DNA from: Ascidiella aspersa
Lineage: Eukaryota
Length of the DNA stretch: 64,000 bases
Reading direction: 5' to 3'
Assembly (NCBI GenBank): GCA_963924565.1
Contig: OZ004611.1
Location: 23,498,001 to 23,562,000, forward strand
Positions within the stretch are counted from its first letter, which is position 1. Every line of letters starts with the position of its first letter. The notes beneath the pieces are model-generated. The model was given only the letters and a program-made list of their open reading frames with translations. It had not been told where the DNA came from and ran no database searches. This document shows positions 15,101-54,910 of the stretch, piece after piece. Position numbers and translations under genes: made by a program.

Positions 15101-18100
15101 CACTTGGCCGAAAAAAATTATTTGGGGCTTAATACCCAATTAAGAATCCGTATAGTTTTTGGATTTTAAGGGAAAATAACAAATTTCCTAAATTGATTGT
15201 TTTCAGAATTTTTAATAATATAATTTATAAATTAATCCATAAAAAAAGAAATAATTAGGCTTGTTATAACCGAAGTTGAGTAAGAATAATAAATAAATGT
15301 GTTATATTAATTCAAGTCTAATCAAAAGATCCGATTCCTTTCTAACGGCGATGTCTGACAATGTCGGATAGATATACGAGGCTATGGTAGTATTGGTTCT
15401 CGTCCGATATTACGCTAGTATTTGTGCCGAAGCGATGCCAAATTACCAAATTAACAAAGCAATTTTCAGCTTTAATAAAGGTAAATTTATCCTACATTGT
15501 AGGTTAATAGCTGGATGTAACTAAACTTCTTAACGCTTAACCAAAACTTTGGTCTAATAACGCACATAAAGTTACCTTTAATAGTTTATTTTGCATCTCT
15601 ATTAGCTATTTAACCATAGTAATGACGGCATTTGGTATCAGATTGGATCGCAATCCTGTTTTTGTAAAATATCGGGTGTATGGTATCTGAATAAAATGTC
15701 AGGTGTCGTACGTCGCTAGTTTTTAAATCAAATTCCAATTGCAAGAACCTTAAGATAAGCAACGTGATAGTATCGGATCGGATCGCGATGCATTTTGCAT
15801 ACAGAATCGGGTGAAAGGTATGAGAATAAAAAAAGTCCGGTATCGTACGTCGCTACTTTTTTGATTAAATTTCAATTGTAGGCACCTTGAGATAAGCAAC
15901 GTGGTAGTTGAGCATCGCCTCGGCGTTCCGGATGTTGTCCTTGGTACCGACGAAGCGGAACGGCACCAGGTTATCGGTGCGATTGTTCGGTTCGTTTTCG
16001 TCGTCGCCGATCACGCGGACACGAAGCACCCCGGATTTGTCGATCATCTCCTGAATCGTGACGCCTTTTTTGCCGATCACTTTGCCTGGAAAACCGTACG
16101 TAGGGATTTTTTTTAAACTGGTGACTTTTGAGTAAGGTGTCAATTTTCGATTTAATTATGTGACCCGATGGTGTATTTGCAATACAAAGAAATCACGTAT
16201 AAATCTAAAAATTTCACAAATGTTTACAGAATCATTTAAACGTGATGTTAAAATAAACATTTTACCTCCTGAAAAAGGGGGAGGATATTCAAATGTTGAT
16301 TTAGTCTGCTTTTATTTACTTAACAGTGTTAGAAACAAGTTCAAGTGTACAATAAATTTGAAACGAAACTTTCTTTAATGACGTTTATATTTTGTGATAT
16401 TTAAGTGAAGAAGTTCCACCACTCAGTACCACAACAAATCTAAACGGAATTGAGCAAACCGACATAGATTTTTTAAAGTTTGTGTGGCACGGTTCACGAC
16501 TTAGCTTCATGAGTGAGGTAACGAACGTGATACTGTGCTCATCATTTTTTAATTTCTCTTAAGCTTTAAAAGTCGTAACCTCAAGCTTAAAAAGCTTGGT
16601 TCATATCAGTTGCAAAAATCACGCTTGGTCTCCTTAAAGAAGCCGGAAAATGAACGCAGCACACACCAAGCTACATTTAAAGCACTGCGACGCAAACCAA
16701 TAACAAACAAATAAAACATTTAAAGATTACGTTTAACAATATTTCAGCAATAAGACCATAAATAAAATAATGTCCAGGTTGAATTATACACGAATTCGTT
16801 TTAAGACCTAAAAGAGACTAATATAAGTAAACCGAACTACGGCCCAAACCTAGAAAATACCAGTCAGAATGAGACGTAAACAGTCCAAATAACGTTTAAA
16901 CAACCTCTCACCCTACCGCAATGGCAACGCTAAATTTATATCTAACTCCAGCAATACCGCCATGCCTAACTCACTTCAAATGCCAATCATTTTTCACCAC
17001 TATCTCTTATCAAAGGCATTTGGTTTATTTATGACGTTTGTCCTAATACCGCGGCATTAAAGATAATTCCGTTATAGATATTGTTGCCTTGCAGGTCCTA
17101 TTGTGTGTTACCGTTTAACGTATGTGACAATCGCAAATAAATAAAAACAAATACTTTACAATGATTTCGGGTGACCCCATAACGAGGTGTTTCCGAATTA
17201 TTTTTAAGAATTTTACGTATCGGGCTCGGTCCTTTGCTATTTAAAAAAATCTAACATTAAACCAAAGCTGAAGTAAAATAAAGAAAATAGATAAATGATG
17301 TAACTTATATAAAGATAAGTTTTTTGAGATTGCTTTAATTCAGATTCAGAATCATCTAATTTTTGTGCATCTTTGCAAACATTGAAAAAAGAACATAAGA
17401 ATAACACAAAGACAGCGAAAGGACCTTACGGTCAAGTCGAGCTGCCCATTAATTGTTTGCCTAATCAAGTTGGGCTGCCAGGTTTGTTTTGGGGTTTACG
17501 GTTTAACACGCGAAAGTCGAAACTGATTATTGGCGGATCACTAATTCTGCTGTACTGTTCAGTACACATTTTAACAGGTATGCGGACCACAATTTAAAAA
17601 CAGGGCCAGTAAAAAGGAAACTCACCGACAAAGGGTCTCGGCACCAAAACCTCGGTCTCCAAAAACTCGAGAATATCTCTGGCCCTGGTCACGGCTTCCC
17701 TCGTCTCGCCATAGACGGTGAAGTTGTGCGTTTCCTCGTCCAAAATGATGTCCATTACTCCGGGCACCCGTCTGGCCGCGATAATGTTGTTGCCGTTGGT
17801 GCCGATGGCCAGGCCGATTAGGTCGTCAGCAACGTGAAAGTTCTCGGTGCAAGAGGTGGCGCGTTGCTGAGTGACCTGGGCGAAAAGTCGAAAGTATTTT
17901 AAAAAGGTTAAAACACTTTAGAAAGTAAGGATTCTCCCGCAGATAATAAAATGAAAAAGAACGATTCTTGTTTTCGTATAAGATGATCTCAAGACAGTTT
18001 ATGAAAACAGATAAAACATAAAATCGTTCCTTAAAATTTTACAGAAATATATTTTCTTCGCCTATAAGGCATCGTCAGTTTCTTATTCAACAAGAATTGC

Positions 18101-21100
18101 TTATAGGCAAAATAAATATTTCTGTAAATATTTTAAGATAATATTTTATGTTTTATCTGTTTTATAAACATTCAACAATCTTACGAACATTATTTAAAAA
18201 AGGCTCCCAGTTTGGACTGTTGGGAGTGTGGAGTGATCAGAATGGGATATTTTTTACTTTTTCTATTGTGGAAACCGAACGTATTGCTAAGCTACTATAC
18301 AAATAGGAAAATTGAGATTGATTAAGGCCGCCCATAATCTTGAACTGTTGCTCATCAGAATAAGCCAGTTGTTCTCAAAAGAGATCGACCGATATCCATT
18401 TTTTGTACCGATACTGATACCTGATTTTTTATATTTTTCAACTGATACCCGATACCAATTTTTTTATATACCTTAGAATGTTCAAATCTTAAATTAACTA
18501 AAGAAAATTCCAAATAATGTTTTAGTTTATATACCTTTATTAATTATTAAACTATTATTTTGCATATTAACTTGACCTGATGCTAAAACCAGATAAGTTG
18601 TTTGTTGTACAGGAAAAACGATATCATATTTTGGTACTAAAATATCGGCAAATGTATCGGCCTTCATTTACCGATATCGATATATCAGTAGAAGCCGAAT
18701 TTGACCGATATTATCGTTAAACCGATATATCGGTCTATCTCTATTTCTCAACCTTCTTTCTTTCGTGGCCTATTTTCGTTGCAAAAAAAATCTGTGGCTT
18801 AATCACTTTTATAAACAAAAAACATATTATAAAATAGGTTTAGACAAAAAAGATTTCAAAAGAGGCTATTTTGTTCAACCGTGCATTAGTGAGATACTTG
18901 CTGCTGAAGAATAAAATTTCCATTTTATTTACATTTCTTCTTAATTCCTGACCAAGCCATTATTCCTGTAAAGTTAAGTATAGTGACACAAATGAAACCA
19001 AATTTTTCAATAAATCTAGGCTTTCTTTAAATAGGTCTGTGAACCACATTACAGTTTTTTCGGTCCAAGGGTTGAAAACAGCTGGAATAAGGATTGTTTT
19101 TTTATTTCTATTGTTTCTTGTTTAACACCAAACGCTACACTGTTTTTGGTGACTTGAATTAGGGTGAAAAATCAGTTTAATTAACAAAGCCAACAAGCTA
19201 GTACTATCCCAAGAGTAGAGCGCCCAGAATGAGGCTGTTCAGGTACTACTGGTCCTTTTTTCAATTCCAGGCATGATAAAGAAACATTGACAAGAAAAGG
19301 GGCTATTCACACAGACGTGACTATAGTACTGGTATTTTTGTAAGTTCGCCACTGTTGGCATAAATATGTATTTTGAACCTCACAACCCAGCAAACAAAGA
19401 ATGTTTGGCTACACTTGGCAAAGTCAACAATTAATTTCTAACAAAATAAAGCGTTTCTTTAGTAACCACCATATGGACAACTTAAATAAAACTACCAAAG
19501 CATATTGAGGCTTTTTGTTTATAATGAATTAATAGTGATTAATAAATAGATTTTATATTAAAAGGTATTAATGTGTTAAAATTAAGATTTTTCTAGTTCC
19601 TTTGATGTACTGAGTTTAAACTCTATAAGCAACACAATGAACATATAAGAGAATCAAGAACTAAAGTTTACAAAACAATAAACATTAGCATAAAAATCAT
19701 ATAGAAGTGCAGAGAAGCCCGACGGCTTGGTTAAAAATGCCTTTGGGCCATAAACAACATGAAATAGGTATGAAAACCAAACCACTCTAGAGAAATTTGT
19801 CAGTCTTTTTTTTTAGTTTGACTTGAACCCATAATATCAGGATATGTTGACGTTAGAGATCACAATAGCGTATGCAATTGTCCTTACTGAAACACTACAC
19901 TCAATTCAAGCTTTAAATTATGCAAGCTGGTGTTTGGTTTTTCCACAAAAGTGGCAGAGTGGTACCCAAATACACTAAGGAACAAGATGTTATCTATTAG
20001 TAGAATTGATAGAATTGTTGGGTAGCCTTTAAAGATATATATCACAGATGGTTTTAAGAGCTAAATTAACTACAAAGTAATGAATTCCAAATGAACCAGG
20101 TTTTTGAAAGAGCTAAATAAACTACAAAGTACTGATCTAAATATAGGCTAAAATAAACCTACAAAATATGCCTTTCTATAAATACAACAAAAAAGTTTGT
20201 TCAAAAACAATATCCCCCCAAAAAACAGCGGCAAGAAATATTTTTACCTCCAGATGTTTTGCTGCTTCTTCCACTCTCTGTAGCATGGCCAACTTGGTTC
20301 GCAGACTTCTGAAATGCAGGTCGGCCACGATGGATGCTCGGTGTTTCGCAGATTCATTCGGCACCAGGACATCGAGGCACTTCTGCTCTGGGCGGTACTG
20401 GACAAAAATCGCCCCAGTGCTCTTTTCAAACTCTTTGTGAGCGTCAATATATTTGGTGCAACTGAAAACCGAAAAAAAAATTAACATCAGTACCTGTATA
20501 TGGGTCGAATAAGTTAGGTAAAAGAGTGGACCTATTTGTTACAAGGTTAAAAATACAATTAAAACAAAAGAAAAACGGGCTCTGACACAGTGAACCATGG
20601 ATGCATGTTCCCCAAGATAACATGAATTATCCTTATTTATATTGGCAAAAGTTCAACAAAATTTTTGTTTTTTTAAGGAGACGTTAATGCCCATTTAAGT
20701 CATCCTTTTCTTTTAAAATAAGGTTTTTTAAAAGTGAAAAAATCAATCAGTAAACTGGTAATATATTTTTATTCCTTTTAATAAGTGTTCTCATTTCAGG
20801 AAACAAAAAATGTAAACTTTGCATAAACACAAGGGATTATCACTTTCAAACAAAAAACTTACAATTCTTGCAAATCTTCAGGAACTGGAAGAATTGCCTT
20901 AAGAATCGGTGCCGAACTGAAAAGAGGCTGAGTGCTAGCACGGCGCAAGCGGTCGCGAGTCACAATTTCGGTGTGCTTCGGCTGACATGCCTGGTACTCT
21001 ATCACATGGAATTCACCCTTGGTCATCTTGACCTTGGCAAGCCACCATCCACAAGGCTCCATTTCATTGGCTCTTGTGTGGACCTTTTAAGCCACATAAA

Positions 21101-24030
21101 GAGTCACGATTAGTTTTAGGCCCAAATAAATTGTCACATTGTGGTAAAACGTTGAATGCAAAGGAGCAACTCAAACTCCTTAAATGCAAATCTGTGTGAC
21201 CCTGGAAATTATATTCTGAAACTTAAAACATTACCCAGAATCGAGTATCGTAAAGAAATTTTAAAAAAAATTAGAGTTTTTTTAGTTTAATCATAACACT
21301 ACCAACCAAGCAGTTGAAAATCTACATGATGGTGAAAATTAACAATAATTTTAGTGTTAGTGAATATAATCAAACTGTAAATTAACAGAAAGTTATTTAA
21401 TGTACATGTAAAGTTAATGGAAAAAAGGTGACAAAAACGTAATAAAAAAATTAAACCGGCAAAAAAAAATTTAGTCAAACCAATTAAATTAAATATTCAG
21501 ATAAAATAGTACAGTTATTTTGGGGAATTAAAAAAAAAGATATCATAATTGTTTGCATAAGTTGGAAGGGTAAAATACAAATAATTTTCATAAGAATATA
21601 TATATCAATAAGCAAAGCCAAGCACGTATATATTGTTTGTAGTGCTCTGCCAAGCACATATAACTATGAATACTTCTATTTCCAAGAGCTACATTGGGTT
21701 TGAATGGAAAAACTGTTGCACATTTAGGGAAATCAATAAAGACCAACACAAGTGGACAAGTGGCAATCAAAGAGTCAGGGCGATTTTTTAAACTCTATTT
21801 GAAGCCATCCTTTTATGCGGTGGCAGGGAAGTACGATTTAATCTCATTGATAAACATTGCATCAGAACCTTTTTTTGTATGACCACATGGTTTGAAATCC
21901 CAAGGGTATTGCAACTGGCATGAACTTTAATCATGACATTACACATGTCTGTCACAGTGTTTGGACCAAACCCAATCATTTCAACTTGGCACTCAATTAA
22001 AACCACAAACTTAACAACAGTGACAGCACATCAAATTCAAAATGTTTATTGTGTTTACTGCATCAAGAACACAAATTTTTGAAGTGTAGAAAAATTCTAA
22101 CAGTTTTTAGTTTAGCAGTAGGTTTATGCTGTAGTCTTACATATATATTGCAGCTGATTGTATAATTGGTTATATGAAAGATTCCACACAGTTTAAAATT
22201 AAAATGTATCTAGTATTAACAGTGGAATCATGGGAATTAGTTTTTAAGTGCTTCTAAACTTTAAAATTAACCAAATATAAAGGTATCTGCCGGGGTTACA
22301 TTTGTGTAGTTAATATTTTTTGGGGTTGCCATTAAAGATAATTCACAACAAAATATATATTTTATCCAGCTAAATTCCATGACAGAGACCAACACAATTA
22401 AATGATAGCTTTCATGGGATACAAATTTTTACAAGGTGAAACACTTTGTAACCTACAAAGCATACGTCATGTGCCATGAGTACTTAGGCAACACACAAAC
22501 AAAGTCAGAAACTCTATTTGTACCAATTTAAAGGTGAGTGTAATCAAACAACTAAAATTGGATCATGACAAGTAAACCAGTTGCAGCTTAAGGAAACAAA
22601 CTGGCAGCTGCCAAGGCACAGCTGTCATCTCTCAAACCAGGGAAAGGCACTTAATTACAGACACCCTGACTCAGACAAAGATAAAACAGCATATTAGTCT
22701 GTCTCTAGAAATGGCACCAGTTTTAACCTGCAGATGTTAGTTGTATGAACACATATTAGCTCTAAACACAGACAAAAAACTGTTTCTAATTTAAATTATT
22801 TTAAACAGACAAAAACTTCTTCTAATTTAAATTACCATCAGTACTGACTAACTAACCTTTCACAATTTCTGTGCGATATTGTTAGAAACTGTCTGTAAAG
22901 TTTATATTGTGAAAACAATGGATCTCTCAATTATAATAAAGAATTAATAAGAGAAACAGTGTAGTTCTTTTATTTTAATAACATTTTTGTTTAAATCTGG
23001 CAATTTTTGCACACAGCAATCTCTTCATATAAACCAACAAAATGATTGTTCAGAATACTTCAATGATTTTAACATTGGGTACCATCAGGCAAGAAACAGC
23101 TAAAGAACAGCTCCAAGCCAAATTAAATTAGTATTTAAGCATGAAACAATCACAACCAAATTCAGGATCCATAAAATATGTTCGTTACCTCAACATCCAG
23201 GCCTTCCACCAAGTCTTCATCACTGATTTCAGATTCTTTGGCTGTCGGAGCAAACCTGGCTTCACCGAAGCTGATTTTCCTTTCAGCTTGCCAACTAAAA
23301 TTAAACAACAGAAGCGTTCCATTTTAATCAAGGGCTATGGATACAAATACCTTTGTTTAAATTGGTTTGAACTTGTTGTTTAGCTTTGCAAAAAAAGCAA
23401 AGCAAAGCTTTTGTTCATGGCTGGTCTAGTAATACTTTGCAAAATATTTGGTAAAACAAAATGTGTTTCTCTACTTCAATCTAATAACATTATACCTTTA
23501 GTTGATGACTCTTGTTGGTAAATCAATTAAACAAACATAATAATGCGCAATAACTACAACATGAAAGGTCTCCCATCCTTACTTGTTTTCGAATGCCACT
23601 CTCACTCCATCAGGAAACACGTCCTTCAAAAAAGCCTAGAAACATAAAACGGTAAATTAAACTTTACAAAAAGTTACTAGTTGTGAAAGCCTTTAATTAG
23701 AACCTGGAAATGTTTAAAGGTCTAAAAAATGAGAATTTTCTTTCAAATATAATATTCTGCCTAATTACAAAACAAAAAACAAAGAATTATGATTCCATAA
23801 CACCTAATGAAGCCTGAAATAACTAGAAAAGTGAAAAAAAAAATAGTTTGTTTCAAAATGATAAATATAAATTACTACAAGAGCATTATCAGTATATTAT
23901 TCAAATAGAAAGGGAATCAATAAACACAAATTTTTGTAACATCAACAAAACAAACAGCCACACAAAAAAATAGGTAAACCTTGTAAAATGCAGTGTTAGA
24001 TCCTCTTACTTCCACAGCCCGTTGGTCCAT
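9179..24030 (-). CDS. FMR1: Fragile X family RNA-binding protein (FMR1/FXR1/FXR2 homolog), 15 coding exons, 655 aa
   Basis: Exons 23980-24030, 23583-23635, 23189-23294, 20863-21083, 20248-20461, 17626-17875, 15886-16085, 14746-14929, 14191-14287, 13455-13597, 12507-12632, 11904-11993, 11171-11236, 10019-10050, 9179-9313; phases consistent, 1968 nt. Motifs: N-terminus [17 protein letters not shown]; Agenet [10 protein letters not shown]; KH0 HFRSLRTKL; KH1 [10 protein letters not shown]; KH2 [19 protein letters not shown]; NES-like [18 protein letters not shown]; [11 protein letters not shown]; RGG boxes; [10 protein letters not shown]; C-terminus VNGVA*. The small exons 11171-11236 and 10019-10050 are less certain. 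Confidence 0.95.
9434..9771. mobile_element. hAT-type MITE (cagtgcttccca family)
   Basis: Termini cagtgcttacca ... tgggaagcactg; 8-bp TSD atttaagc/gtttaagc; homologous to ~11465-11863 and 34403-34708. Confidence 0.85.
10164..10433. mobile_element. hAT/Charlie-like MITE
   Basis: Termini cagggtcaaccaaact ... agtttgctgacccctg; its right end overlaps the TSD of the next element. Confidence 0.65.
10437..10969. mobile_element. hAT-type MITE with 19-bp TIRs
   Basis: TIR cagacttggacaactagat / atctagttgtccaagtctg; perfect 8-bp TSD ccctggcc; internal ttctaatctaattt repeats. Confidence 0.9.
11465..11863. mobile_element. Second copy of the cagtgcttccca MITE family (left end degenerate)
   Basis: Shares catttatgcaacaatgt, cagtagtaaagatgcaggttttatgtaa and aaaacttgcattaaa with 9434-9771. 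Confidence 0.75.
15635..15907. repeat. Diverged ~136-bp tandem duplication including the 3' end of FMR1 exon 7 and its donor site
   Basis: gtcgtacgtcgcta...aaattccaattgcaagaaccttaagataagcaacgtgatag (to 15770) vs atcgtacgtcgcta...aaatttcaattgtaggcaccttgagataagcaacgtggtag (to 15907). Confidence 0.75.
17972..18189. mobile_element. Foldback (inverted pair) element with a degenerate hammerhead motif, Penelope pLTR-like
   Basis: Arms aaaacagataaaacataaaat...ttacagaaatat...gcctataag and cttataggc...atatttctgtaaa...attttatgttttatctgtttt are reverse complements. The minus strand at 18043-18083 reads agaaa CTGACGA t gcc ttata ggc GAAG...tttct. Confidence 0.7.
18366..19084. mobile_element. hAT-type MITE with a second MITE (18379-18743) nested in its left TIR
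   Basis: Outer termini cagttgttctcaa...ttgaaaacagctg with TSD gaataagc/gaataagg. Inner termini agagatcgaccgata...tatcggtctatctcta with TSD gttctcaa/tttctcaa. Confidence 0.8.
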
Positions 24031-24599
24031 TTTAACTGCAGATTTCAGGTCAATTTTAGTCAAGTCCTACTACAAGTCGAATTGCTGAATTGCACAAAAG
24101 TAAGTTCATAACAGGGAACGTTCATAACCACGTTTGCTTCAAGTCATTACGTAAGTTAGGTATGCAACACCACCATACAAAAAAAAAAATAAATCATGTT
24201 ATGTCCAGTTGTTTTAATGTATATATATATTGCAAAATTATTGATTAATACCACTTTAAACCACTATTTTTATGGCGTTAGAAGTATTTTTTGCCGAAGA
24301 AAAACTTGATTTATATATTTCTACAATGGACATCCCAAGTAGAATGGTTAAACTAAATAACACAACAAACCAAAGCAGCAGTACAGGTATCTACAAAAGT
24401 GTGCAAACCCTAGATCATCAACTGCACATTAAAATGAGTCGTTTTATAACAGTAGAATTGAAAAAAGAAAAGTTTCAATTGTGGTTAATTCCTCTAAAAA
24501 GTTACGGCAAATCTATAGAGTAAATCCAAGAACTATAGCATCTATTTGAAATTTGAACTGAACAGTTTGAAACAGAATAATAGTTGTGTTATATATAAA

Positions 24600-24906: not shown

Positions 24907-25791
24907 TTAAACATCCTGCTCAAAGCTCTTTTCAGGGAGCTGTCTCTTGTAGAGTTCTGCAAGGCACAGGGCAGTGGAATAGATTATTTCCCTTCGAGAC
25001 ATTCCTGTTAATGCTCTGTGCCAGTCGGAAGGTTTGACCCAGGGTAACTTGGTTTGAATTGTTTCGCCAATCGTTTTTGCAAGTCCAGACCATCGCAGGT
25101 TGTAGTTATCCGGGGTGCTTTTTTGGGCTTCCAGTATGATATCAGACTCGACAGGAACGGCCATCGTGAACAGTTTAATTGTTATATTGTTTTCGGGATC
25201 TTGCAGAAGCACACAGCCGACGTCGAACCATTGCTCTGGCAACTGCTCAACACTGAAGTTTTCAACAGCAACACAAACCTCATTGGCAGGCACCTTGTTA
25301 GCTTTTCTCAGATGGTTGATTCTTTCCTGTGCGCCTTTTAAACCAGCAGTGTAGCCGACTGGCTGAGCAGCTACATTTGATTGTGCTTCCAAGCCAACCA
25401 CAGTGGCAGCACCAAACACCTTCTGGAATGCATCACGTACGGCACCCCACTTTACCTCCTTGTCGGAAGCCACAACTATCGTTATTTCACCACCTTCCTT
25501 GATGTAGGGAGTCATTCCTGGGTCCAAAGTGGTAATCATGCGATCCATGCTGGTTTTCGTCTTTTCCATAACCTTCTGCATGAATTGATTGTTGGATGCA
25601 GACTTGATCCAATTCCAAACACCGCCATGGTTCTCTGCCTGATCGGCCACTGTATCAGGACTTGTTGTTTCTGATGGCTGCTCCAAAGGCTTGTCTTCAC
25701 TTTTGGTGACTGGACTATCCTGGGCAACTGGAGCCTCCGCTGCTTTATTAGCCTCTAACTTTAAATCACTCGATGCAACAGGATCCATCAT
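24907..25791 (-). CDS. PRRC1: PRRC1 homolog (YjjX-like NTPase I/T domain), single coding exon, 294 aa
   Basis: Uninterrupted ORF with GGVWNWIK, KVMEKTKTSMDRMITTLDPGMTPYIKEGG, IVVASDKEVKWGAVRDAFQKVFG, QSNVAAQPVGYTAGLKGAQERI and DWHRALTGMSRREII. An acceptor (ttaattctag) lies 6 nt upstream of the ATG. Confidence 0.93.
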   Translation of the reverse strand: MMDPVASSDLKLEANKAAEAPVAQDSPVTKSEDKPLEQPSETTSPDTVADQAENHGGVWNWIKSASNNQFMQKVMEKTKTSMDRMITTLDPGMTPYIKEGGEITIVVASDKEVKWGAVRDAFQKVFGAATVVGLEAQSNVAAQPVGYTAGLKGAQERINHLRKANKVPANEVCVAVENFSVEQLPEQWFDVGCVLLQDPENNITIKLFTMAVPVESDIILEAQKSTPDNYNLRWSGLAKTIGETIQTKLPWVKPSDWHRALTGMSRREIIYSTALCLAELYKRQLPEKSFEQDV

Positions 25792-26019
25792 TTTGAACTA
25801 GAATTAAGTCTACAATTAATATTTTCCTATAACCAAAACAGGGATTTGATCAGTGACAGTAGTGATTTAACTAACAAGGTAACTATCATAGTGCGCCAAA
25901 ACAAAAATGTATTAGTATTTAGCTTCCTGAGTAACCGAGTAGGAATAATGCCATTTTATTATATAGCAAATTTAAACTTCAGGTTTACACAAGCACAATT
26001 AACTTTTTGTATAACCATC

Positions 26020-27379: not shown

Positions 27380-32208
<4,829 letters not shown>

Positions 32209-39133: not shown

Positions 39134-42100
39134 TTAACGGTGGTGTTCCGCGTCACAATTGGCCGGGATGTTATCAAAGATCGTGGTACAAACAGGGTCT
39201 GCAAAAACAAAGACACGTCACTGAAAAACAAAACATATATGCTGAGTGTGAAGCAGACGTGCTATATCAGGGGTCGGGAACCTATGGGTCGCGAGCCATA
39301 TATGGCTCTTTTGATTATGTAATCTTGCTCGCAGATAAATCTAAGCTATTTTATTTCTTATCATGACTTAAATAAAACGGCCATGACCCATTTCAAACTG
39401 TAATTCTGTTAATTTAAAACTGCCTAATAACAGTTTTTCCGTGCTTCACGCGAATCCTATTCGTCTTATCGTGGCTGTTAACCGATTTAAAGAAACCCCA
39501 TTTGCCTCCTAAAGGCCCTTTTCGTACCATGGTTCTCAATTTTTGTAAACTTAGCAAACATATTTTTTCGCGCTTACTATGTTGTCTTTTCAAATGGTCC
39601 ATTTTAAATTACTATTTTGGCCAACCAAAACAATTGTTGAACAATATAATACGGCTCTCATGGAAATACAACCAAAAATATTCGGCATATATGGCTCCCT
39701 TAGCTGAAATAGTTTCCGACGCCTGTGCTATATAATATATAGTGCTGCTATTTTTGAAAAGATTTAGCTTTGCACAAGCTAAACGCCGTTTTACAGCTAT
39801 TTGGAAGTTGAGTGAAAAAGTGGGTTATTGCAGGTTCGACTTTCTCTGTGCGCGTGCATTTGTAGCGCCATAAAATATAAATGCACTTTTTAATTTTTCG
39901 ATCCTTGACATATATTAATCTTGGATGCAAAAATAAAGCTGGACCAATGGCCACCAAACAATATGACACAGGGCTATAACGCGCAATGTACAATTTAAAT
40001 TTTGACAGTTGCTTAAAAAGAAGAGTTTTCACTGGAATTAATTCGGTCGTTTTATTAGAAATCCTCTTCTTGGAAAACACTTTTTAAAAAAATAGTTTTT
40101 GTTGTAATTTTTTCCAAGTAATTTTATAAAATAGCGCGATAAGAAATATCGAAATGTGCTGCAAATTCAACAAAAATGGATTCACAAGCTAAAACGTCGT
40201 TTTCTAGAGTCTTATAGTTGAGTATGCAAAGTGGGTTTACGGATTCGACAATCTCCGAGCGTGAATATATTTGTTGCCTATCCGCTTTTCACTAACTTTT
40301 TTTTTTTGTTTTTTACTTTTTTTATAACTTGTATAATTTTGCTTCGTTACGCTGGACCAGCGGTCAGCAAAATACTGTCCGCGCAGTTATCCTGTGGCAT
40401 ATTTCCTTAATGGAATTTGATAAACCTTTATCCACGGATATTAACGGTAATCTTTGTCGGATGCAAATATAATCTAGAATTTTCACGCGAACATAAATCT
40501 AAATTTGAAATTTAAATTGTTCCACAGTTTTATAAAGTATAAATTTTGTTAAATCATAACGTTTCCTTTGTTTAGTTTCAGAAAAGGCAAGAAAGTTCGA
40601 CGCAAAAGTTATACCCGTCCCGTGATAGCCGTTCCATACATTGTCCTGCCCCTTGAATAAAAATGTTTTGCCCTTCGCTGGATGCTGGACCATTTATTAA
40701 TTTATGGTTCACCCCGAGTCGTTTTTGGCCATGTTTGCAAAGTAGCAGTTCTTTAACTTTCAGATCTGGCGCAACTGCTCCTAACGTTGATAAACGATTC
40801 GTGTAAATATCGAGAAGCTTGACTAATCGAAAAAAATGGTAGTTTTGCCCTGTTTTGCAACGTTTTAATGGCGGTTTAATTAAGCCCTCCTGGTTATAAT
40901 GACCCTCATGGTTCATGAGTGTAGGCAACAATACGAACACGGCGTGTATGTCGTCTTACCGTTATTGGCGCAATGTTTTAGGCAGTTTGCGCATTTACAC
41001 AGCAGCAAGTGGGCGCAGTTTTGAGCTTCCATAAGGCTACAGATGTCAGAATTTGGGCAGCAATGTTTATGGGCACACTTTCGAGCTACCGTTCTTCGAT
41101 CTGAAACAACAAATAGAGAGGGATTTAGCGGACACCCACCGCAGCTCACATGCCAGGAACAAGGGTTGTCAACACAACTGTATACTTGTAGAATATCTAT
41201 TTCTCAAAAAGAGCTCGTAACGACAAACTTTAACGTTAGATTCATTCGGATTAAGGAACTGATGATGTCATTATAGGCGAAATATATATTCTTTAAAAAA
41301 AATCTGATCCTGGTTTTACTCGGGTTTTTAAACTTAGTTTTTGTTAACACTAGGCGTTTTCCGTTATCCAAGTTGTAAGGTGATAGGAAAAGATTTTTAC
41401 AAAATAACACTGGGTGCAGAAAGCCTTACTATAACTCGTTTTACAAGCCAAGTTGTAATCAGTTAACAACTTTAGACATGGCTATAGGTCAGAATAGAGT
41501 AGACAATAGCCATGTTTAAACATTGGGAACACAGCTATATGGGGCAACAGTTTTGCATTTTTTTATCAAAATCACACTAGAATAAAAAACGTATTTTACA
41601 ACTCTATTCAGTCTAGACTGAGTTAGATTTGTTTCACAGCAATATAGAGAAAGGGAGTCGCAAAGCGACAGAAAGTGTCAATGCAAGACAGCATACAAAA
41701 CTTGATTACTTGGATTTTTTGACTTGTTCTTGCAACTCTGGATTTCAAACACGTTTTTGCATTGACGGTTGCAGTTACTTCTACAACTGTCAACAGCTGA
41801 TTCCACGCACGCTCCAACTAAAAAACACAAAATACAATTGAGTATCTCGAAGCTATGTATGTATAACAGTGGTTCTTAACTTTTTTTCTACCACGCCCCC
41901 TTTGGTAATTGTCCTGTGCCTTGTGTCCCCTTAAATAATAAATAATTATCATACTAAAAGTAATTCGGTATTTTTCAAGTATATATCAATAAGACAACAG
42001 AAAACTCAAAAGTTTACTCCCAATTGCGCGAAAAAATGCCTTTAATTCGTTTGATTTGGGTAAACTTCAATATAGGAGAACTGACAAATTGGGCACACAA

Positions 42101-42754
42101 AATATTGGTCGTGCTCGATATATTGGTTTTCGTCAAGCTGATTTTGACAAACATGTTGTGAAGATAGTAAGGCTACACGGAAACCATGTAAAGCTGTCGC
42201 CAGAAGCGTCAAAATTAAACATTACGAATCATGTTTTAAAAAAGTGTGATGACACAAAAGCAAAGGCTATACTGCAAATAACTTTACAAATATGCGCAAA
42301 AAATTCTCATTTCCAACCAATTTGTTATATACTAATGACAGGTTTCCGCGAATGGCAAATGTTTTCCACATTTTTGTTGTTAAAGTCGGCAAAACCACCT
42401 TTTGTGGAGAGGTTGGCATGGTACCCAACCCCCCTGTACAGACAAATACAACATGGAACCAAAAAATCATTATAAAAAGTTAAATATTGGAGTACATCTC
42501 GCGCCTCCTCCCGGTTGAGAACCACTGGTACATATGGGTTTGTTCAGTTATGAGTGGCAGGCTGGCAGCAAATCTCCAACCGCAAGCAGATAACTTTTAT
42601 TTAAAAAAATCCTAATAGGTAAACCCTGAATGGACGAACCGTCAAGGCGAAGCTATAACAATTTACCTGCACGAAGATGACCTTCCACCGACCGTCTTCC
42701 ATGGGCAACATAGGCAAAGGCGACGAGCAGACACACTCCGATAAAAAACTTCAT
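39134..42754 (-). CDS. Secreted Cys-rich small protein, paralog B (vanabin-like Cys spacing), 4 exons, 133 aa
   Basis: Exons 42667-42754, 41710-41817, 40960-41100, 39134-39198; all introns phase 1. Protein: MKFFIGVCLLVAFAYVAHGRRSVEGHLRAVGACVESAVDSCRSNCNRQCKNVFEIQSCKNKSKNPNRRTVARKCAHKHCCPNSDICSLMEAQNCAHLLLCKCANCLKHCANNDPVCTTIFDNIPANCDAEHHR*. Signal peptide and 16 mature Cys. Confidence 0.87.
39268..39725. mobile_element. hAT/Charlie-like MITE (paralog B intron 3)
   Basis: Termini caggggtcgggaac ... gtttccgacgcctg; perfect 8-bp TSD tgctatat; subterminal gagccatatatggctc. Confidence 0.9.
41251..41296 (+). ncRNA. Minimal type I hammerhead ribozyme motif
   Basis: ttaaggaa CTGATGA t gtc attata ggc GAAA tata TA|ttctttaa. 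Stem I is 8 bp (one GU), stem II is 3 bp, helix III is a palindromic tetranucleotide; predicted cleavage after 41288. Confidence 0.7.
41867..42527. mobile_element. hAT-like MITE (paralog B intron 1)
   Basis: Termini cagtggttcttaac ... ggttgagaaccactg; no clean TSD. Confidence 0.7.
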
Positions 42755-43353
42755 TTTTGACCTTAAGGTTTTTTCGCTACTCGAAAAAGGCAATAGAACG
42801 TTTGTAGTATAGTGTAAGCTTTAAACAGCGTTACACGAATAACAATGTATACCAAAAGGAATATTGCTTGAACGGTCAGGTTTTAAAACTGTATACTTAC
42901 CAAACCAAGTTTACTTTCAACAAATATTATGACCTTTGGCCCAAAAACAAATTAAAAAATATCTCCCTATATTAGTGAATACATTTATATTTGATGTTAA
43001 TCATTTATGATCCAATAAACGTAAAATCGTCGTCTCTTATGAGTCGCCAAACGCTTTATATCGGCACACAGCCCGTAGCGTCCCATACATATATTATTAT
43101 ATATGTCTGATCCTGGTTTTACTCGTGTTTTTAAAATTTTATTAATTAAACATTAGGAAAATAAATCCGACGCAACCATTGCACTTTGGCAAGACACTAA
43201 TATCGTTTTTTTAAATCGAGTTTGCCATACCCGTCGCAAAATAAATGCTATAGCAACGTTGATTTTCATAGGCCGAAAATTAATTTTTGAAATTGTAACG
43301 CGTTAAATTAAAAGGCTGCTACGTCTCTAGTCTGTCCAAAGTGCTTACTTGTA

Positions 43354-43388
43354 AACTGACATGGCGAGACTGCGCGCCGTCCCTTATA
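43354..43388 (-). promoter_or_regulatory. Core promoter of paralog B: TATA-like box plus Initiator
   Basis: Minus-strand TATAAG starts at 43388; TCAGTT has its A at 43357, placing TATA at -31. The ~100 bp upstream aligns with the paralog A upstream region. Confidence 0.7.
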
Positions 43389-44309
43389 TCACAACAGCTG
43401 GTCCTTTTTCACTTATACCTCTGTGCCTTTTACCCCGTTTTCAAACGCACGTTGTTGCTTTAAAGTCGGTTGACTTCCCTTTCTCTAAATTGCGCCAAAA
43501 TAAAAAATGTATAACAAAAAGCTACACAGTTGGGCCTGCGGTTTCTTTTCCACAGGTCGTATTTTGTACAAAGTAATATCATAACTTACCGTAAGCGGTT
43601 AAGGGCTAATAATTTGTCTGCGTCTTTTCACGCGAAATATTCGCGCGTCATTCGTAAAACCGAGAAATAATCTTGCTCAGATAAATACTTCTGCAAGGTA
43701 AAAGTTATTGTGTTAAAAACATAATAATTGTTTGTTTTTTAAATTTGGCTCGAATCGCAATAGTCATATGAAAATTCATGTAAAAACATTAAAATTTTCA
43801 CATTACGTTTACTATAAGATTCTGTAAGTCAATTTTCATAAAAAAGACGTGTCTTTATTCGATTAAACATTGTGTATTTTCTTTAAAAAACAAAGTTCAT
43901 TGTCACATGAACTTTTACATGAACAGTGTTGTTTCTTTCATATAAAAACATCGACTGTTTCTAGCACACTTGTTCCCAAGTTATTTGGGCTCAAGGCACC
44001 CTAACGCAAAATATAAATAGTCTGCAGCACTCTTGCGTTTTTGCTTTGTGGTTTACTGTGATGTCACAGTAAACTGAATTTCAGCACTATATAAGAACCG
44101 TACGTAATTTTAAAACATACCTAATTAATAGTATGCACAAAAATTGTGTCGCGAAGCGTACCAATAGGGCAAAGATTATAATCCAAAGGAAATTCAAATA
44201 TTTCGTGAAACTCTTGAGCGTTAGAAAAGGCACCGCGGTTGTAGCACTATATAAGGGCATATATTTATCTATACTGATTTCATATGTTTTTTTGAAAGTC
44301 TTTTTAAAT

Positions 44310-44643
44310 AAATAACAAGTGATGTCCCAGTCCAAGTCATCGGTTGCCCAAGTCAAGTCCCAGTCAAGTAATAGTTAAAGCAATTCAACTTCAAGTCAAG
44401 CTCTTGTCACAAAAATAAAACTTGTCCAAATGACTTAAGTCAACGCAGGTCATTTTCTCAAAAGACTTAAGTTAAGTCAGGTCATTTTCTCAAAAGACTT
44501 ACGTCAAGTCAAGTCATTTGCTCAAAAGACTTGAGTCTAGTCAAGTCATTTTGCCCAAAACACTTAAATCAAGTCAAGACATTTGATAATAGTGACCTGA
44601 GTGCACTTAAGTCAAGTCATTGACTTCAGTTATTACAACATTG
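44310..44643. mobile_element. Partial aagtcaagtc MITE (right half)
   Basis: Repeated gacttaagtcaagtca units ending in ttacaacattg; homologous to 30185-30671. Confidence 0.8.
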
Positions 44644-45234
44644 CGTAACTGCCCCATCAAAAGGCCGTAAAAAAGGCTGGTTTTGATTTGTCAAACGCTG
44701 TTTACCGAGTTCTAGTGTTGCGCACGTCACTCTTGTTGCACCCGGCAGAGTTTGCACTCGGTTCTGTCTCGGGACCGCCATTCCCAAGAAATACAGCTTC
44801 CTGGATTGATCCGGACCGGCGCAATCGGCCGGCCATCCAGCGCCGCTTTAGTCTCGGTCTTGGCACGCGCTGTAACGGGACCGGAAAAAATCGAAACGGC
44901 TCGCGGGTAGCCGTAAGTAAAAACAATACACTTGGCGCTTGGCCGCAGCGCAAGTTAGTATTGGCGCCAGCGAATTCTGCCATCTCCACTGAGAACCCTG
45001 ACTTCAGCTTCTCGATTTTGATAAGAATAATTAAACGACAGGGTTTGGTGGGATTGCTTTTCTAATGCACATACAAACCCGTGTGAGCAACACAAACAGG
45101 CTGTGGTGCTTTCTGGCAAATCTATAGGCGCCGATTGTAAGTTTTCGCCCGAGTGTTTACACCTAGGTCTGAGAATGTAAAACATACATTTGCTATATCA
45201 GTGTGGCGCTATGATTGCCAGTATAAGATATGAC

Positions 45235-45966
45235 CAGTGATTCCCAAACTGTGTGCCGCGGCACACTAGTGTACCTCAAAAGATTTTGTGCCAATTTTTT
45301 TTTGTTAATTTGGAAAAATTTCTATCACCAATAGGCATACACGCAAGCATTTTAGACTAAAATGCGCACTATTCATTACAAAGTGCAAACTTAATATGTA
45401 AAAATGAAGATATCTCCTCGTCCTAATGCACGTTAATGGCGACAATGACTTCGAATGGTTGCAAAACAGTATAGTTTTTAGTTGCAATGGGCCTCTACAC
45501 TGTAGGGTGGAGTGAAAAATTCCCAAGAGTTGGGTAGCAGGATGGTCCGGTTTTCTATAGCCCTATAACTATAAATTTCATCATATATATTTTTAACCTG
45601 GTCGCGTAGTTTGTTGCTCTTTTGATTCTATGATTATTTTCCTATGATTTTTAATTTTTACCACCTGGTTTAAGTGTTTACATTATTTTGTATTCGTTTT
45701 TTAGAGACTGATGATGCCGTGATTGGCGAAATATATTTCTCTTTTATAAACTAGAACCTATAGTGACTGATTTTGACTGAGACAAGAATTCTATACTGTT
45801 TTTTAACCACTACAAATTAATAATATTAGGACATTTGCATATAGTTTGTCGTGTAGGCTATTAAGGGCGATTGTAAAATTACTCTATTATTGTTCAGTTA
45901 AAAGTGTGCCGCGAAATATTAAGATTTTTATGTGTGCCGCAAGCTAAAAAAGTTTGGGAACCACTG
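45235..45966. mobile_element. hAT-like MITE (gtgtgccgc family) with an internal hammerhead-bearing segment
   Basis: Termini cagtgattcccaaact ... agtttgggaaccactg with subterminal tgtgtgccgc; related ends at ~1441-1474 and ~33554. Confidence 0.7.
45703..45742 (+). ncRNA. Minimal type I hammerhead ribozyme motif
   Basis: agaga CTGATGA t gcc gtgatt ggc GAAA tata TT|tctct. Stem I is 5 bp and stem II is gcc/ggc; predicted cleavage after 45737. Confidence 0.72.
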
Positions 45967-47678
45967 TTATAGACAGACAAATTACCAACCCCACTTGCAC
46001 TACATACACAGATATGCAAACAGTCTCTGTTGCTTTCTGGCAAAGCTAGGCCTGGATTATGATGGAAATTCGATCAAACGTCTTACGCAAATATTTGCAC
46101 AGCGTCGCGAATGTAAAACGCGCAGTCGCTATAAGAATGGCTCTGATAATTGCCAATGAGATTGGACTCGAAGGTGGTTTCGAATTGAGGTCGAGAAGCC
46201 AAAAATGGGTCGATGCCGCGGCAGCAAACTAGATCAAGTTGTTGATAGTGGTACTCTAGATTTTTACAACGACTGAACTGCTTTTGTTGAAATTCCAATT
46301 GACGATTGATTAACTGTGTTTACAGAGTGTAAAATTTTCGCTGTTTTATTGTAACTACAAACTAGCCGTTTCTTGTTATAGTCTTGCGTTCCATTTCCAT
46401 GTTAAACGAGTGCAAACTCTAATTGAAAAAATTGTACTTTATTTAGATTGCCAAATCGTAAATAAAACGTTACAGTAAATATTCCTATAATGCTCGTCAG
46501 AACACTGAAAGCTATGTATTAAACCTTCATAAGAAATCATCGACAGTTCGCCATAGCCGCTTCGTCCTAATAAGGTGATGTTCTTTAAATGCTAAACACA
46601 AATATTATTTTATCAGTGGGAACATTAAACGCGAATTGCTATTCGCTAATGGTGATTAGTTAGAAAAATCTTAGTTAGAAAAATCTGAAAGCTTTTAAAA
46701 TATGAAGACTTGATTCTACAAACGCGAAATATGACATAAGTCTTAACCAGTGAAACTGGGTGAGCTAAGCAATGTTACGACTTGGATAAGGAATAGAATG
46801 TATTGAACATCCCAAAACGCACAAATCCATAACGAACGTGAAAGCCAGATAACACCGGAAATAACATCCGCATACGGCTAGTGAGAAGCGGGTTGACAAA
46901 CCATTGGTCTATCTAACCGAAACATGATAAGTAAAAATTTGTCCTTCGCTATATGTTTACAATATGCCTATTTGCCAACTTCACGTTATGCTTATATTTG
47001 AAGTTAAAAGCGTGTTTTTAAACACCGTTGCTGAGTTTTTTGCGCAAATTTATAGTTACGAGGTGGCGCAAGCGATGTGCATGGTCTACTCTCCTCGATG
47101 TTGACCGAAAAAAAAACACATAATTGGAAACAATAAGGTAAAATTTTACAATAGTTTAACTGTTAAATAGTTATAAGAAGCCATATGTATGTCCTTTCAA
47201 ACTGAGCGCCATTTTTCATGCGGTCGAAAAATGTATTTAAGGCAAGTTGGGGTTAGCCCTCGTCAAGTCCAAGTTTTTTCTACAGAAAGTATTTCTTGCG
47301 TATGCTGCAAGCGCAGGTTTGCCGACCGGTAGTGACGTCAACTAAGTACCTTTCAAACAACCACAAAAGCCACAAGCACTAATTTGTGGCCACAAATCCA
47401 CCTTTTCTTTATGTTGTATCGCACCCGTCAAATAAGCATTGAAAATGTGCAACTTTTTACTTGGTCAGTATAGTTTGCGTTTGCGTTGTAATATACCGAT
47501 GAAACATATTATTAACAAAAAATGTAGACTTGCTCAGGTGTTTTTATCTGTCAAAACAGTTGCAATGTTTATTTCCGATTTCAACCTAAGAAGTGGTGCA
47601 GTAAAAATAAACGCTTTCCACGTGATCCAAATTCACTAAACTTGGATTTATTTTACAAAGTTATATTCTATTTGAATA

Positions 47679-47721
47679 AGAATCTGATGATGTCTATCAC
47701 GAAGGCGAAATATATATTTCT
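47679..47721 (+). ncRNA. Minimal type I hammerhead ribozyme motif (stem I closing pair mismatched)
   Basis: agaat CTGATGA t gtct atcacga aggc GAAA tata TA|tttct. Flanks are homologous to the 17972-18189 foldback. Confidence 0.6.
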
Positions 47722-49424
47722 GGAAAATCTTAAGAAATTATTTTATATTTAAAAACTGTTTTATAAAGTCTTGCCATCGACTTCTATATATTTACTTTGC
47801 ATACTTGACATTTAAAAACGCAGCAAGAGCATTTAAGGGGCAGGAGGGCAATAAGATTTGATGTACAGGAAGGCAATCGAACATGCAAATTAAAGCCGCT
47901 TATCTCGTGGCAAACCATTAACCTTTGCAAAATCTAGGCTTTGCCGTTGAGCCTGAGCGCCACAACGACGATATGAATAAAAAAGGACACAGAACAAAGG
48001 CGCCACGATTGTGCAGTTTGCAATCTAATAGCGCTGATGTTGCACTTTACGACTCGCGGATTGGCGCTCATATAGGCTTCTTAGGAATAGCCTCGAGCGC
48101 CGAAATCTTTCTTGGCCGAAAATCTCGTGGTGTTTTCCCGCCGTTTCGGTTAAAAATTCCCAGGCCCAGCTGTCGCTCAGTATTATAACGGCGCGGTAAT
48201 ATATTGACATGGGCAAAATACAAGCATCAAAATTTATTGTTTTTTATTGTGTTGTGTTTTCATCGACAGAATGCCGCGAAAGGAGGTTAGCTGGACCAAT
48301 TGGTACCTGACACCTATAGGTTATGCTGCAAGCAATTCCAAATAAATAAAAACTGGACGTAATTTATCAGTTTCAATAGACACGCGTCATATAACTTATC
48401 ATCTACTTTTTACGTTAATGTAGAACTAATGATCCACGTTAATCTTATGATCTACTTTTTAACGATAATGTGTGATTTTGAGTGCGGAAAAAAATAGGTG
48501 GTTTTATAAAAAAAATATGCCAAACCATTGTACAGGCAGTTGTGTCCTTATTAAAGATTACGGTAACGCCAAAGTTTGGGGCAAGTCCAACGCGTTTTTT
48601 TTAAAGTTCTTCGAACATACTATAAAAAAATATAATTTTTGTTCTACATCTAAATTATTTTTAGTTAGTATTTTGCAAAATTATAAGCAAAATAGTGGAA
48701 TAGATGTTTTGTAAGACTCGTACATACATCTCAAAGATCGCTCTAAGAGGTCAAATGTAACCGGATTGGTTAGTATTCGCAAATTACTTGCGGATTTTGT
48801 ATTTCGAAGAAAGTTTAATTAGAATACGCTCTCGAGATCGCTCTCAATTTTAGGAGAATCACCTATCTAAGAGAAACTTTTAATTTCCTGAAACGAATGT
48901 GTTTTTGATTTGTTGAAAAAAACAAACGCTCTATTGGAAAATACCGCCTTTTTCTCAGGAGATCAGCTAACAATTTACGATAAAAACATACATTTCTATA
49001 GCTGGATTACAAGTACCTCCTGTTATATGTTTGAAAGCATGTCCGATAAAAAAAATTAAAGTCGGACGAGCGAAAGATGAATCGGAGTTAAACAGAATGA
49101 TTACCAGCAGTCACATTTAGTATAGTTAGTTTCAGGGCATTGATGACATCAGAATTGACCCAAAGAAAAACGATCACTATTTAATCACTTCCCACTCGAA
49201 CCATATCACGTTTGAACTTTGCGGAAAAAAGTTTCCATAGTAATTAGCTTTTGGCGAGCGTCCGCAAGCGAACCTTTTACCAAGGCTAATTCTGCATAAA
49301 CGAGAGGAAATTCCCAGCACAAGCTTTTCACAACTGTAAGCACAACAAACAGACGTCGAGATGTTGTTATGTAAACCTGATTGTTCGTTGTTTTATAATA
49401 TCGATATACGTAATATATATATGT

Positions 49425-53430: not shown

Positions 53431-53448
53431 CTATATACGGATCTGTTC

Positions 53449-53661
53449 ATAAGTTTAATGGTGAAAATAACGGCCTTTTATCTATCGCTTTTGCGACGCT
53501 TGTTTCGCACCTTTTTATTATTCATTTATGCGACTAAAGTAAACTGGTGTAACTGACGCCTTCATATCACTGATGATGGCATGAGCATTTGACGAAACGT
53601 TTGAACAATAAAGTATGTCGCTTTTACGTCTATTTGGGCCGTTTTTCACCATTAAACTTAT
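53449..53661. mobile_element. Inverted-repeat element enclosing a hammerhead-like motif (Penelope pLTR-like)
   Basis: ataagtttaatggtgaaaataacggcc / ggccgtttttcaccattaaacttat form the inverted repeat. Inside: tca CTGATGA tggcatgagcatttgac GAAA cgtt|tga, followed by AATAAA (53567-53612). Confidence 0.6.
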
Positions 53662-54687: not shown

Positions 54688-54910
54688 CAGTGTTGTACAA
54701 ACAAATCAGTTGGAAATGACTTAAGTCCCGGTCAAGTCATTTGTAAAATAATTCAAATCCAAGTTAAGTCGGTTTGAATAACTAACAAGTCAATCCCCAG
54801 TCCAAGACATCAGTTGCAAGTCATTTGACCCCAAAGACTTAAGTCAAGTCAAGTAATTTTAAAACAGTAACTCAAGTGCCTTATTTGTTCAAGTCATAAA
54901 CTGAAGTCAT
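54688..54910. mobile_element. Internally deleted aagtcaagtc MITE
   Basis: Begins cagtgttgtacaaacaaa and aligns to 30185 onward. Confidence 0.75.

Follow-up and report, generated by a model that had tools for sequence, protein, structure and literature searches.

Background

Minimal hammerhead ribozymes in the pseudo-long terminal repeats (pLTRs) of Penelope-like elements (PLEs), and solo copies of them, have been known since 2014 (Cervera and de la Pena 2014, PMC4209133). Four such motifs are found in a 64,000 nt window of the ascidian Ascidiella aspersa (contig OZ004611.1, positions 23,498,001 to 23,562,000), the window being the whole stretch of DNA analysed; genome-wide counts refer to its own genome of 308.6 Mb. 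Judged by sequence, the motifs are pLTR remnants of three PLE families whose open reading frames (ORFs), with reverse transcriptase (RT) and GIY-YIG motifs, are found elsewhere in the genome. In all but one of the four copies, the sequence starts with a 16 nt spliced leader (SL) joined at the AG of the element, and we consider it probable that these three are cDNAs of the 5' end of trans-spliced PLE mRNA. The origin of such motifs as PLE remnants is already known; the SL-led copies are new. No report of SL-led PLE copies was found in the literature searched, which was covered at title and abstract level and with most subscription papers outside the coverage.

The hammerheads resemble those of other metazoan PLE pLTRs, as described in the available portions of PMC4209133, in their core, the unpaired base before stem II, the G10.1-C11.1 pair, and the short stem I. 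They also share the palindromic helix III and the occurrence of thousands of solo copies with few beside full ORFs. They differ in that, in roughly half of the copies sampled here, it is the SL that completes stem I on its 5' side; the available portions of that paper mention no SL.

The Penelope intron of D. virilis ends where hammerhead helix I begins on its 5' side (PMC4209133). The likeness, as far as the available text of PMC4209133 and PMC8557442 goes, lies in a 3' splice site at helix I and in spliced and unspliced forms of the ribozyme. However, the Penelope intron is spliced in cis, whereas here the site is an SL acceptor and the spliced form has become fixed in the genome hundreds of times. 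In vitro, the PAc Poseidon element starts cDNA synthesis internally on RNA that is uncleaved (Frangieh et al. 2024, PMC11167929). As in the available account of that system, there are two RT starts just past the hammerhead near the ORF start, which define the pLTR end and a tail, and uncleaved RNA is the main template, as we infer here. The PAc tail is 30-40 nt and its ORF runs from stem II, whereas the tail here is about 75-85 nt, the ORF of family F starts at +131, and the evidence is genomic and SL-marked.

Two further systems are close. The RNA of the C. elegans retrotransposon Cer1 likewise acquires the host SL1, and its long genomic RNA skips the site (PMC3315495). That is an LTR element and the event is at the RNA level, with no hammerhead or SL-led genomic copies described in the available text. 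Non-LTR retrozymes (bioRxiv 10.64898/2026.07.22.740005, available portions) also carry type I hammerheads derived from PLE pLTRs, but they are defined by tandem units, whereas the copies here are solo or head-to-head.

The portions of PMC3846280 available leave open which RNA serves PLEs as template, antisense or unspliced sense, and those of PMC8557442 call the significance of PLE intron retention unknown. The SL is added only to the sense strand and after transcription. Genomic copies that begin with it therefore tag the template strand, its processing state, its 5' end, and the priming site.

Hammerheads of the window

An earlier note on this DNA, made from the letters alone, had described these motifs as one dispersed family of minimal hammerheads of the Penelope or retrozyme type. 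Its three plus-strand motifs and degenerate minus-strand motif were confirmed, with CTGATGA at 41259, 45708, and 47684 on the plus strand and CTGACGA at 18078 on the minus strand. The PLE-derived features of the window are listed here, with plus-signed positions counted from the core.

17910..18083, minus strand: SL-led family C copy with a broken hammerhead core at 18043-18083 and a tail to about +168, in an intron of a KH-domain gene
18082..18097, minus strand: decayed SL1 exon, 2 mismatches
18101..18173, plus strand: another copy of this family C segment, truncated at its 5' end and lying inverted, head-to-head with the SL-led 18078 copy
41230-41239 and 41344-41353: candidate 10 bp target site duplication (TSD) of the family B insertion, 8/10 identical, by eye
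41240..41343, plus strand: complete family B insertion, led by an SL; ORF-linked L083/L085/L087/L094 match it at 85% over 81 nt
41240..41255, plus strand: SL2-type SL exon forming the 5' end of that insertion, 1 mismatch to the array genes, its last 5 bases in stem I
41251..41296, plus strand: minimal type I hammerhead of PLE family B, with stem I of 8 bp, stem II of 3 bp with a G-U, palindromic AUAUAU, and a predicted cut after 41288
43103..43139, plus strand: family B fragment without a hammerhead, 89% over 37 nt
45373..45816, no strand assigned: family A insertion inside another repeat, with a candidate 10 bp TSD at 45373-45382 and 45807-45816, 8/10, by eye
45382..45474, minus strand: pLTR end and tail of family A (+85 to +177) in inverted orientation, matching L004 at 96.8% over 93 nt
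45520..45802, plus strand: unspliced family A pLTR with 3' untranslated region, native acceptor, and hammerhead, ending near +95; ORF-linked L061/L062/L065/L082 match it at 89-95% over 280-293 nt
45690..45704, plus strand: native polypyrimidine tract and AG (45703-45704); the AG forms the outer two stem I bases and is the SL join point in other copies
45703..45742, plus strand: intact minimal type I hammerhead of family A, with stem I of 5 bp, stem II of 4 bp, and a predicted cut after 45737
47665..47775, plus strand: whole SL-led family C insertion, ending at about +90 to +95 (approximate), 77-80% over 85-93 nt to family C copies
47665..47680, plus strand: SL1-type SL exon, identical to the Ciona SL
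47679..47721, plus strand: minimal hammerhead of family C, first stem I pair U-U, predicted cut after 47716
53476..53661, plus strand: family H repeat with a hammerhead core of the GAAACGUU type at 53570 and no SL; inverted tail at 53431-53475

The core of CUGANGA, GAAA, and UH is complete in the 41259, 45708, and 47684 copies and broken in the 18078 copy, where it reads GAAGAAAA. The predicted cut sites follow from the register GAAA-TATA-UH as read off the sequence. The 45708 hammerhead is intact, and that at 41259 has one G-U change within stem II. The SL has supplied 5 of the 8 bases on the 5' side of stem I in the copy at 41251. A contiguous stem I is not formed in the 47684 copy, due to its U-U first pair, and this hammerhead is probably impaired.

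In the window, CTGANGA alone is not enriched (20 versus 15.3 +/- 3.8 expected). The full pattern occurs three times, against a mean of 0.005 (maximum 1) over 200 dinucleotide shuffles. Since this pattern was derived from the window copies themselves, the genome counts are the fairer test: 304 versus 0 for a reversed-pattern control and, for a looser core, 4,162 versus 99. The earlier note had proposed just such a scan against background, and had reasoned from about five motifs in 64 kb to a high genome-wide load. The load is borne out, but the density of the window is not representative, as the genome mean is approximately 0.9 cores per 64 kb and the window is 4-5 times denser. The Rfam scan of the window at E<=10 gave no hammerhead.

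The fifth of those motifs, at 53567, had been counted with the others. It belongs to a separate family, H, and has a GAAACGUU core and one mismatch in stem II. No ORF was found in 20 family H loci, and a PLE origin is inferred from the layout of the repeat.

The PLE families and their proteins

The genome contains many relatives of 45520-45802, and several of these continue on the upstream side as an ORF that contains RT and GIY-YIG motifs. In total, 102 PLE matches were obtained in a protein search of the genome. Seven families, A to G, were each defined by one ORF-linked reference copy, and the proteins of the six others are 43-49% identical to that of family F. The 45708 copy falls into family A (89-95% over 280-293 nt), the 41259 copy into family B (85% over 81 nt), and the 47684 and 18078 copies into family C (77-84%). 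A single dispersed family is therefore rejected, as the four copies fall into three PLE families. The assignment of the motifs to minimal type I hammerheads of PLEs is upheld by the core, the stems, the palindromic loop, and the ORF-linked relatives, through which the copies could also be linked to Penelope RT loci, as had been suggested. It was also correct that the window has no RT or GIY-YIG ORF; there is no PLE protein within 10 kb on either side.

In most ORF-linked loci the hammerhead lies about 240-390 nt downstream of the stop codon. The organisation is that of endonuclease-bearing (EN+) PLEs, with an RT and C-terminal GIY-YIG ORF upstream of the pLTR, pLTRs in tandem, two 3' ends (with an optional tail), and inverted segments. 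Solo pLTRs are much commoner than ORF-bearing copies. In L145 the GIY-YIG match has an E-value of 6.9e-6, above the Pfam cut-off, and the RVT_1 match one of 3.4e-5, below it; in L056 and L149 both the RT and the GIY-YIG matches are below the cut-off. The seven aligned proteins have a CGxCxLC linker, GIY-CxxC-YVG, and downstream histidines, with single-copy substitutions in L148 and L155.

A CxxCxxC linker with a cysteine-containing GIY-YIG is the layout of Neptune and Nematis, according to the available portions of PMC8557442. The proteins share with Neptune-type EN+ PLEs the order of RT and then C-terminal GIY-YIG, the cysteines between GIY and YIG, and the linker, and they have both the CX2-5CxxC linker and the CCHH endonuclease by which that source defines the Neptune clade. 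The likeness to Neptune is one of motifs rather than of placement in an RT tree, and Nematis likewise has the linker zinc motif.

Family F also forms a head-to-tail array with a 3,422 bp period (L225-L226), in which each full unit has the same frameshift. The first in-frame ATG of its long ORF, at +131 from the core, is within the tail and after three short upstream ATGs. Weak PLE fragments of families B, D, and G, without hammerheads, were also seen in the window at 12847-12914, 19505-19533, 23728-23802, and 41977-42016. The commonest hammerhead family in the genome listing (e.g. L062:2596) is distinguished by a longer stem II and by GAAACG-UC as its core, and is outside families A-H.

SL1 and a probable second leader, SL2

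The informative feature of these copies had been overlooked: all of them except the 45708 copy start with an SL. Two 16-mers, SL1 and SL2, are found directly upstream of the core in short copies of unrelated families, at the place where the ORF-linked copies have a polypyrimidine-AG. SL1 (47665-47680) is identical to the SL of Ciona (PMC1488885 Table 1; PMC7986045). One or other 16-mer followed by a GT donor (GTAAG) occurs 2,609 times in the genome. The SL1 genes are tandem 584 bp units on C3 (about 5.2-5.45 Mb). SL2, with 2,274 exact matches, makes up about 87% of the total; among the first 100 matches listed, its genes form 429 bp units on C7 (about 14.76-14.83 Mb; L097-L106 and L142-L144 for both arrays). 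SL1 is thus both identical to a known SL and encoded by multicopy genes with a GT donor, and SL2 has multicopy genes with the donor immediately after the 16-mer. In the SL2 units a hairpin and a U-rich run follow the donor. No snRNA or SL family was matched by Rfam in L095, L105, or L143.

Both SLs occur on the same PLE families. For Ciona a single SL is reported; the present data suggest that an ascidian can have a second major type. No report of a second ascidian SL was found in the same literature search.

Of 100 listed dispersed SL2 copies in which the 16-mer is followed by A, C, or T, approximately three quarters are hammerhead stubs by hand count. In dinoflagellates, relict SLs have been fixed in DNA through the retroposition of host genes. 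The difference is that those relicts are on host genes, whereas here most of the listed dispersed copies are PLE stubs. A few long interspersed nuclear element (LINE) copies also start with SL2 (L163, L164, and also L137-L141), some with two SLs in tandem; one SL2-led LINE has an ORF1 of 248 aa and an endonuclease-RT ORF2 of 1,006 aa.

Junctions and ends of the SL-led copies

In the ORF-linked copies of families A-F, the polypyrimidine-AG is 3-5 nt before CUGA and overlaps stem I in A-E; in family G the junction is about 11-13 nt upstream of the core. In the short copies, SL1 or SL2 replaces everything upstream of the native AG. An SL followed by 2-6 nt and the core has 342 matches in the genome versus 0 in the control. 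By hand count, the spacer is exactly the post-AG bases of a family in 89 of the 100 junction rows listed; a further 8 have one substitution, 1 has an insertion, and 2 match no family reference. Spacers of 2 or 6 nt occur in none of these 100. When 30 loci were picked by the hammerhead pattern alone, 15 proved to be SL-led (<=3 mismatches), a threshold that random flanks pass at 0.00055.

These junctions bear on the possibility that RT switched templates, from PLE RNA to SL RNA or to an SL-capped host mRNA, without any trans-splicing. PLE RTs do leave inverted or jumped junctions frequently (17/40 SL-led copies), and the terminal AG common to both sequences is a 2 nt microhomology. However, the junction joins the end of the SL exon to the base directly after a family-specific polypyrimidine-AG in those 89 rows, whereas ordinary 5' truncations are scattered. 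Template switching is therefore extremely unlikely.

A set of 40 SL-led copies, a mix of unbiased and SL-selected loci, was examined for its flanks. None has SL-gene upstream sequence in front, and none has the native outron. Direct repeats of at least 11 nt between the 5' flank and the region of the 3' end are found in 6/40, with 0 and 1 for the control regions. Of these repeats, one is due to a head-to-head duplication, and four are clean 11-12 mers that sit directly against the SL and place the copy ends at +93 to +96 or +176. With the TSDs outside the SL, and neither SL-gene nor outron sequence upstream, the SL is part of the inserted cDNA.

The same flanks speak to whether the 16-mer is instead the target site of the element. 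Elements of the SLACS/CZAR type insert into SL genes, which are abundant here. Against insertion into SL genes or SL-like DNA, the copies are dispersed, outside the C3 and C7 arrays, and in all 40 the upstream flank differs from the SL-gene upstream sequence at 5 or more of 12 bases. SL-gene targeting has next to no probability and was rejected, on the flanks and on the position of the TSDs.

SL-led and native copies share two 3' ends, at about +95-100 and about +170-185, in families A-F; one of these was seen in G. Some SL-led copies form head-to-head pairs joined at the 5' ends of their SLs (L128/L129, L132/L133), and short inverted SL pieces are found in front of some single copies.

Hammerhead structure and cleavage

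The stems show true covariation between families. Over seven family references, Watson-Crick pairing holds in 35/35 stem I cells although four of the five pairs vary, and this pairing is matched by only 1 of 5,040 permutations; an eighth reference, A2, was left out of the comparison as its core did not parse. The pair that closes stem II, G10.1-C11.1, is G-C in all seven. The earlier note had held that the stems differ between the copies yet stay paired. This is true between families, but its stem II examples, GTC/GGC and GTCT/AGGC, are G-U decay of GCC/GGC. Loop 3 is palindromic in every family (TATA, TATATA, TGCA, or CTATAG). The core has GUAA instead of GAAA in family G, where it is constant in the four copies parsed, and in the family C reference (L147, L152, L153, L149).

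When the SL is added, the terminal AG of stem I comes from it, and the stem changes in length. In families A, B, and D it goes from 5 to 6 bp, in E from 7 to 8, and in C from 8 to 5, while F is unchanged.

Minimum free energy folds of the monomers do not yield the hammerhead. Homodimer folds are more stable than two monomers, but any palindrome would behave in this way, and with a palindromic loop the dimer energies carry no information. Cleavage by the hammerhead would probably require either dimerisation through the AUAUAU palindrome or the help of protein.

Approximately 96 of 100 listed family A copies run across the scissile bond, and the templates were therefore mostly uncut. In 2 of the 100 an arm starts exactly at the predicted cut, where neighbouring positions have about 0.6 starts each per 100 copies by hand count. 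There is no pile-up of copy starts at the cut in family B, nor of read ends in one RNA run, which is too shallow to count against cleavage. A cleavage signature in the copy starts was thus rejected, with 2/100 set against a scattered background.

The earlier note had read the motifs as non-autonomous. In a retrozyme-like version of this, the units would cleave themselves as dimers, form circles, and insert again. The intact cores, covarying stems, and palindromic loop 3 would fit this, as would the dimer folds and the two copies that start at the cut, had they been a clear excess. However, the copies span the cut site, and a circle would have no capped SL end. The copies are solo or head-to-head, and no hammerhead array is present among the 14 rows of the Tandem Repeats Finder output for the window. 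The tandem reading is rejected on these grounds, and a retrozyme cycle in general is very unlikely.

A proposed route from trans-spliced RNA to SL-led copies

The best reading of the copies is that sense, spliced PLE RNA serves as a template in vivo. A pre-mRNA would start in a pLTR or read through from a tandem copy, and would be trans-spliced at the acceptor before the hammerhead to give a capped mRNA. This acceptor may be the counterpart of the end of the Drosophila Penelope intron. The element protein would bind the region around the ORF start, nick the DNA, and prime internally at +95 or +175. On a trans-spliced template, RT would pass the uncut hammerhead and run to the cap, leaving a dead-end copy of 110-195 bp. 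On an unspliced template, it would continue into the pLTR and the upstream ORF and produce native copies such as 45520-45802. The SL-led copies indicate that sense, spliced, uncleaved RNA has been copied and has yielded only stubs, and the question of intron retention becomes directly countable in tunicate genomes.

The SL-led copies do not tell which strand templates full-length copies. Several observations weigh against this route, and the template could have been a short RNA rather than an mRNA. No SL-led copy was seen to reach the ORF, with 0/40 extending beyond about +187 and none in L195-L233. The ORF of the family F array is frameshifted, and in the family A and E tails no ATG is followed by an open frame within the 186 nt that were translated. 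A clear TSD is lacking in 34/40 SL-led copies, 17/40 have an inverted element segment upstream in its place, and at 9 nt or more the excess of TSDs is small (11 versus 3 and 6 in controls, n=40). The Sm-site motif of Ciona, as quoted in the available portions of PMC7986045, is not visible by eye in the SL array units. SL2 was not seen on host mRNA in two shallow read alignments, though its interchange with SL1 and the SL2-led LINE copies lend such a role indirect support. No SL was found among the loose read ends examined (6 of 130 in the first alignment and 4 of 6 in the second), at a depth too shallow to confirm the route or to count against it. The evidence from a second organism, described below, covers the SL, spacer, core, and TSD and not the native acceptor.

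The short length could also be explained by RNAs that read through solo or 3' pLTRs, or earlier SL-led copies, became short SL-capped RNAs by trans-splicing, and were mobilised in trans by the PLE protein, as in short interspersed nuclear elements (SINEs). The lack of longer copies and the excess of solo pLTRs over ORF-bearing copies favour such a source, and earlier SL-led copies could serve, since the SL itself ends in AG. Two repeat families described below also hold SL1 or SL2 inside otherwise conserved sequence. However, native ORF-linked copies share both 3' ends, so internal priming suffices for the short length. In addition, those SL-led copies that stop at +95 have neither the tail nor the ORF-start region, both of which the PAc protein requires in vitro (PMC11167929, available portions). 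On balance a SINE-like source is unlikely.

Trans-splicing of PLE mRNA, which we prefer, could have a wider role. Tunicate SL trans-splicing may act as a switch for PLEs, in that it would resolve tandem precursors, rewrite stem I, and create a dead-end template, with the two families below as self-renewing SL-tagged retroposons. If this is true, only unspliced sense RNA yields full copies, and the retention of the PLE intron is explained. We offer this extension tentatively, as it is possible but rather doubtful.

A second organism and other SL-tagged repeats

A scan of metagenome contigs identified at least 122 SL1-hammerhead stretches, 116 of which have distinct flanks (L258-L379). All 116 insertions have SL1, a 2 nt spacer, and the core, and the complete minimal hammerhead is present in 51/116. 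The loops are TATA, CTAG, and TCGA. TSDs of at least 9 nt were found in 50 of 105 testable insertions, most of them at +87 to +96; the controls gave 6 and 3. The insertions are of several families and match those of the A. aspersa genome over <=66 nt; they appear, from this divergence, to come from a different host.

Families X (L400-L412) and Y (L413-L432) are repeats of about 350-380 bp with an internal SL 16-mer and no canonical hammerhead. Approximately 260-280 conserved nt are upstream of the SL and 85-95 downstream, and the copies differ in whether they carry SL1 or SL2. Nearby sequence gave no match to a PLE protein. The arrangement suggests that the leader is re-added in each cycle and the upstream part rebuilt.

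RNA reads and other features of the window

The RNA evidence comes from one raw run, of which 6% was read. In the first alignment 874 reads were placed, 19 of them at >=99%, and the unique flanks of the copies at 41-48 kb are almost without depth. RNA reads from other copies of the repeat that hosts the family A insertion join 45372 to 45807/45811, skipping 45373-45806, and this repeat is likely a miniature inverted-repeat transposable element. Three host genes or gene parts are in the window.

12500-24580, minus strand: spliced, expressed KH-domain gene, with a KH_1 match and spliced reads
24907-25797, minus strand: DUF84 ORF, just upstream of the KH-domain gene on the same strand
31774-32208, plus strand: NKAP C-terminal exon

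The KH-domain gene, which we take to be FMR1-like, is spliced across the 18078 copy (7 reads, junction 17873-20246), and its 5' end is outside the part that the second alignment covered. It possibly forms an operon with the DUF84 ORF, which is presumably PRRC1-like. One further repeat is present in three copies (30199-30645, 44296-44621, and 54703-54896), has an internal 32 bp array, and is well covered by RNA reads, which come from other copies.

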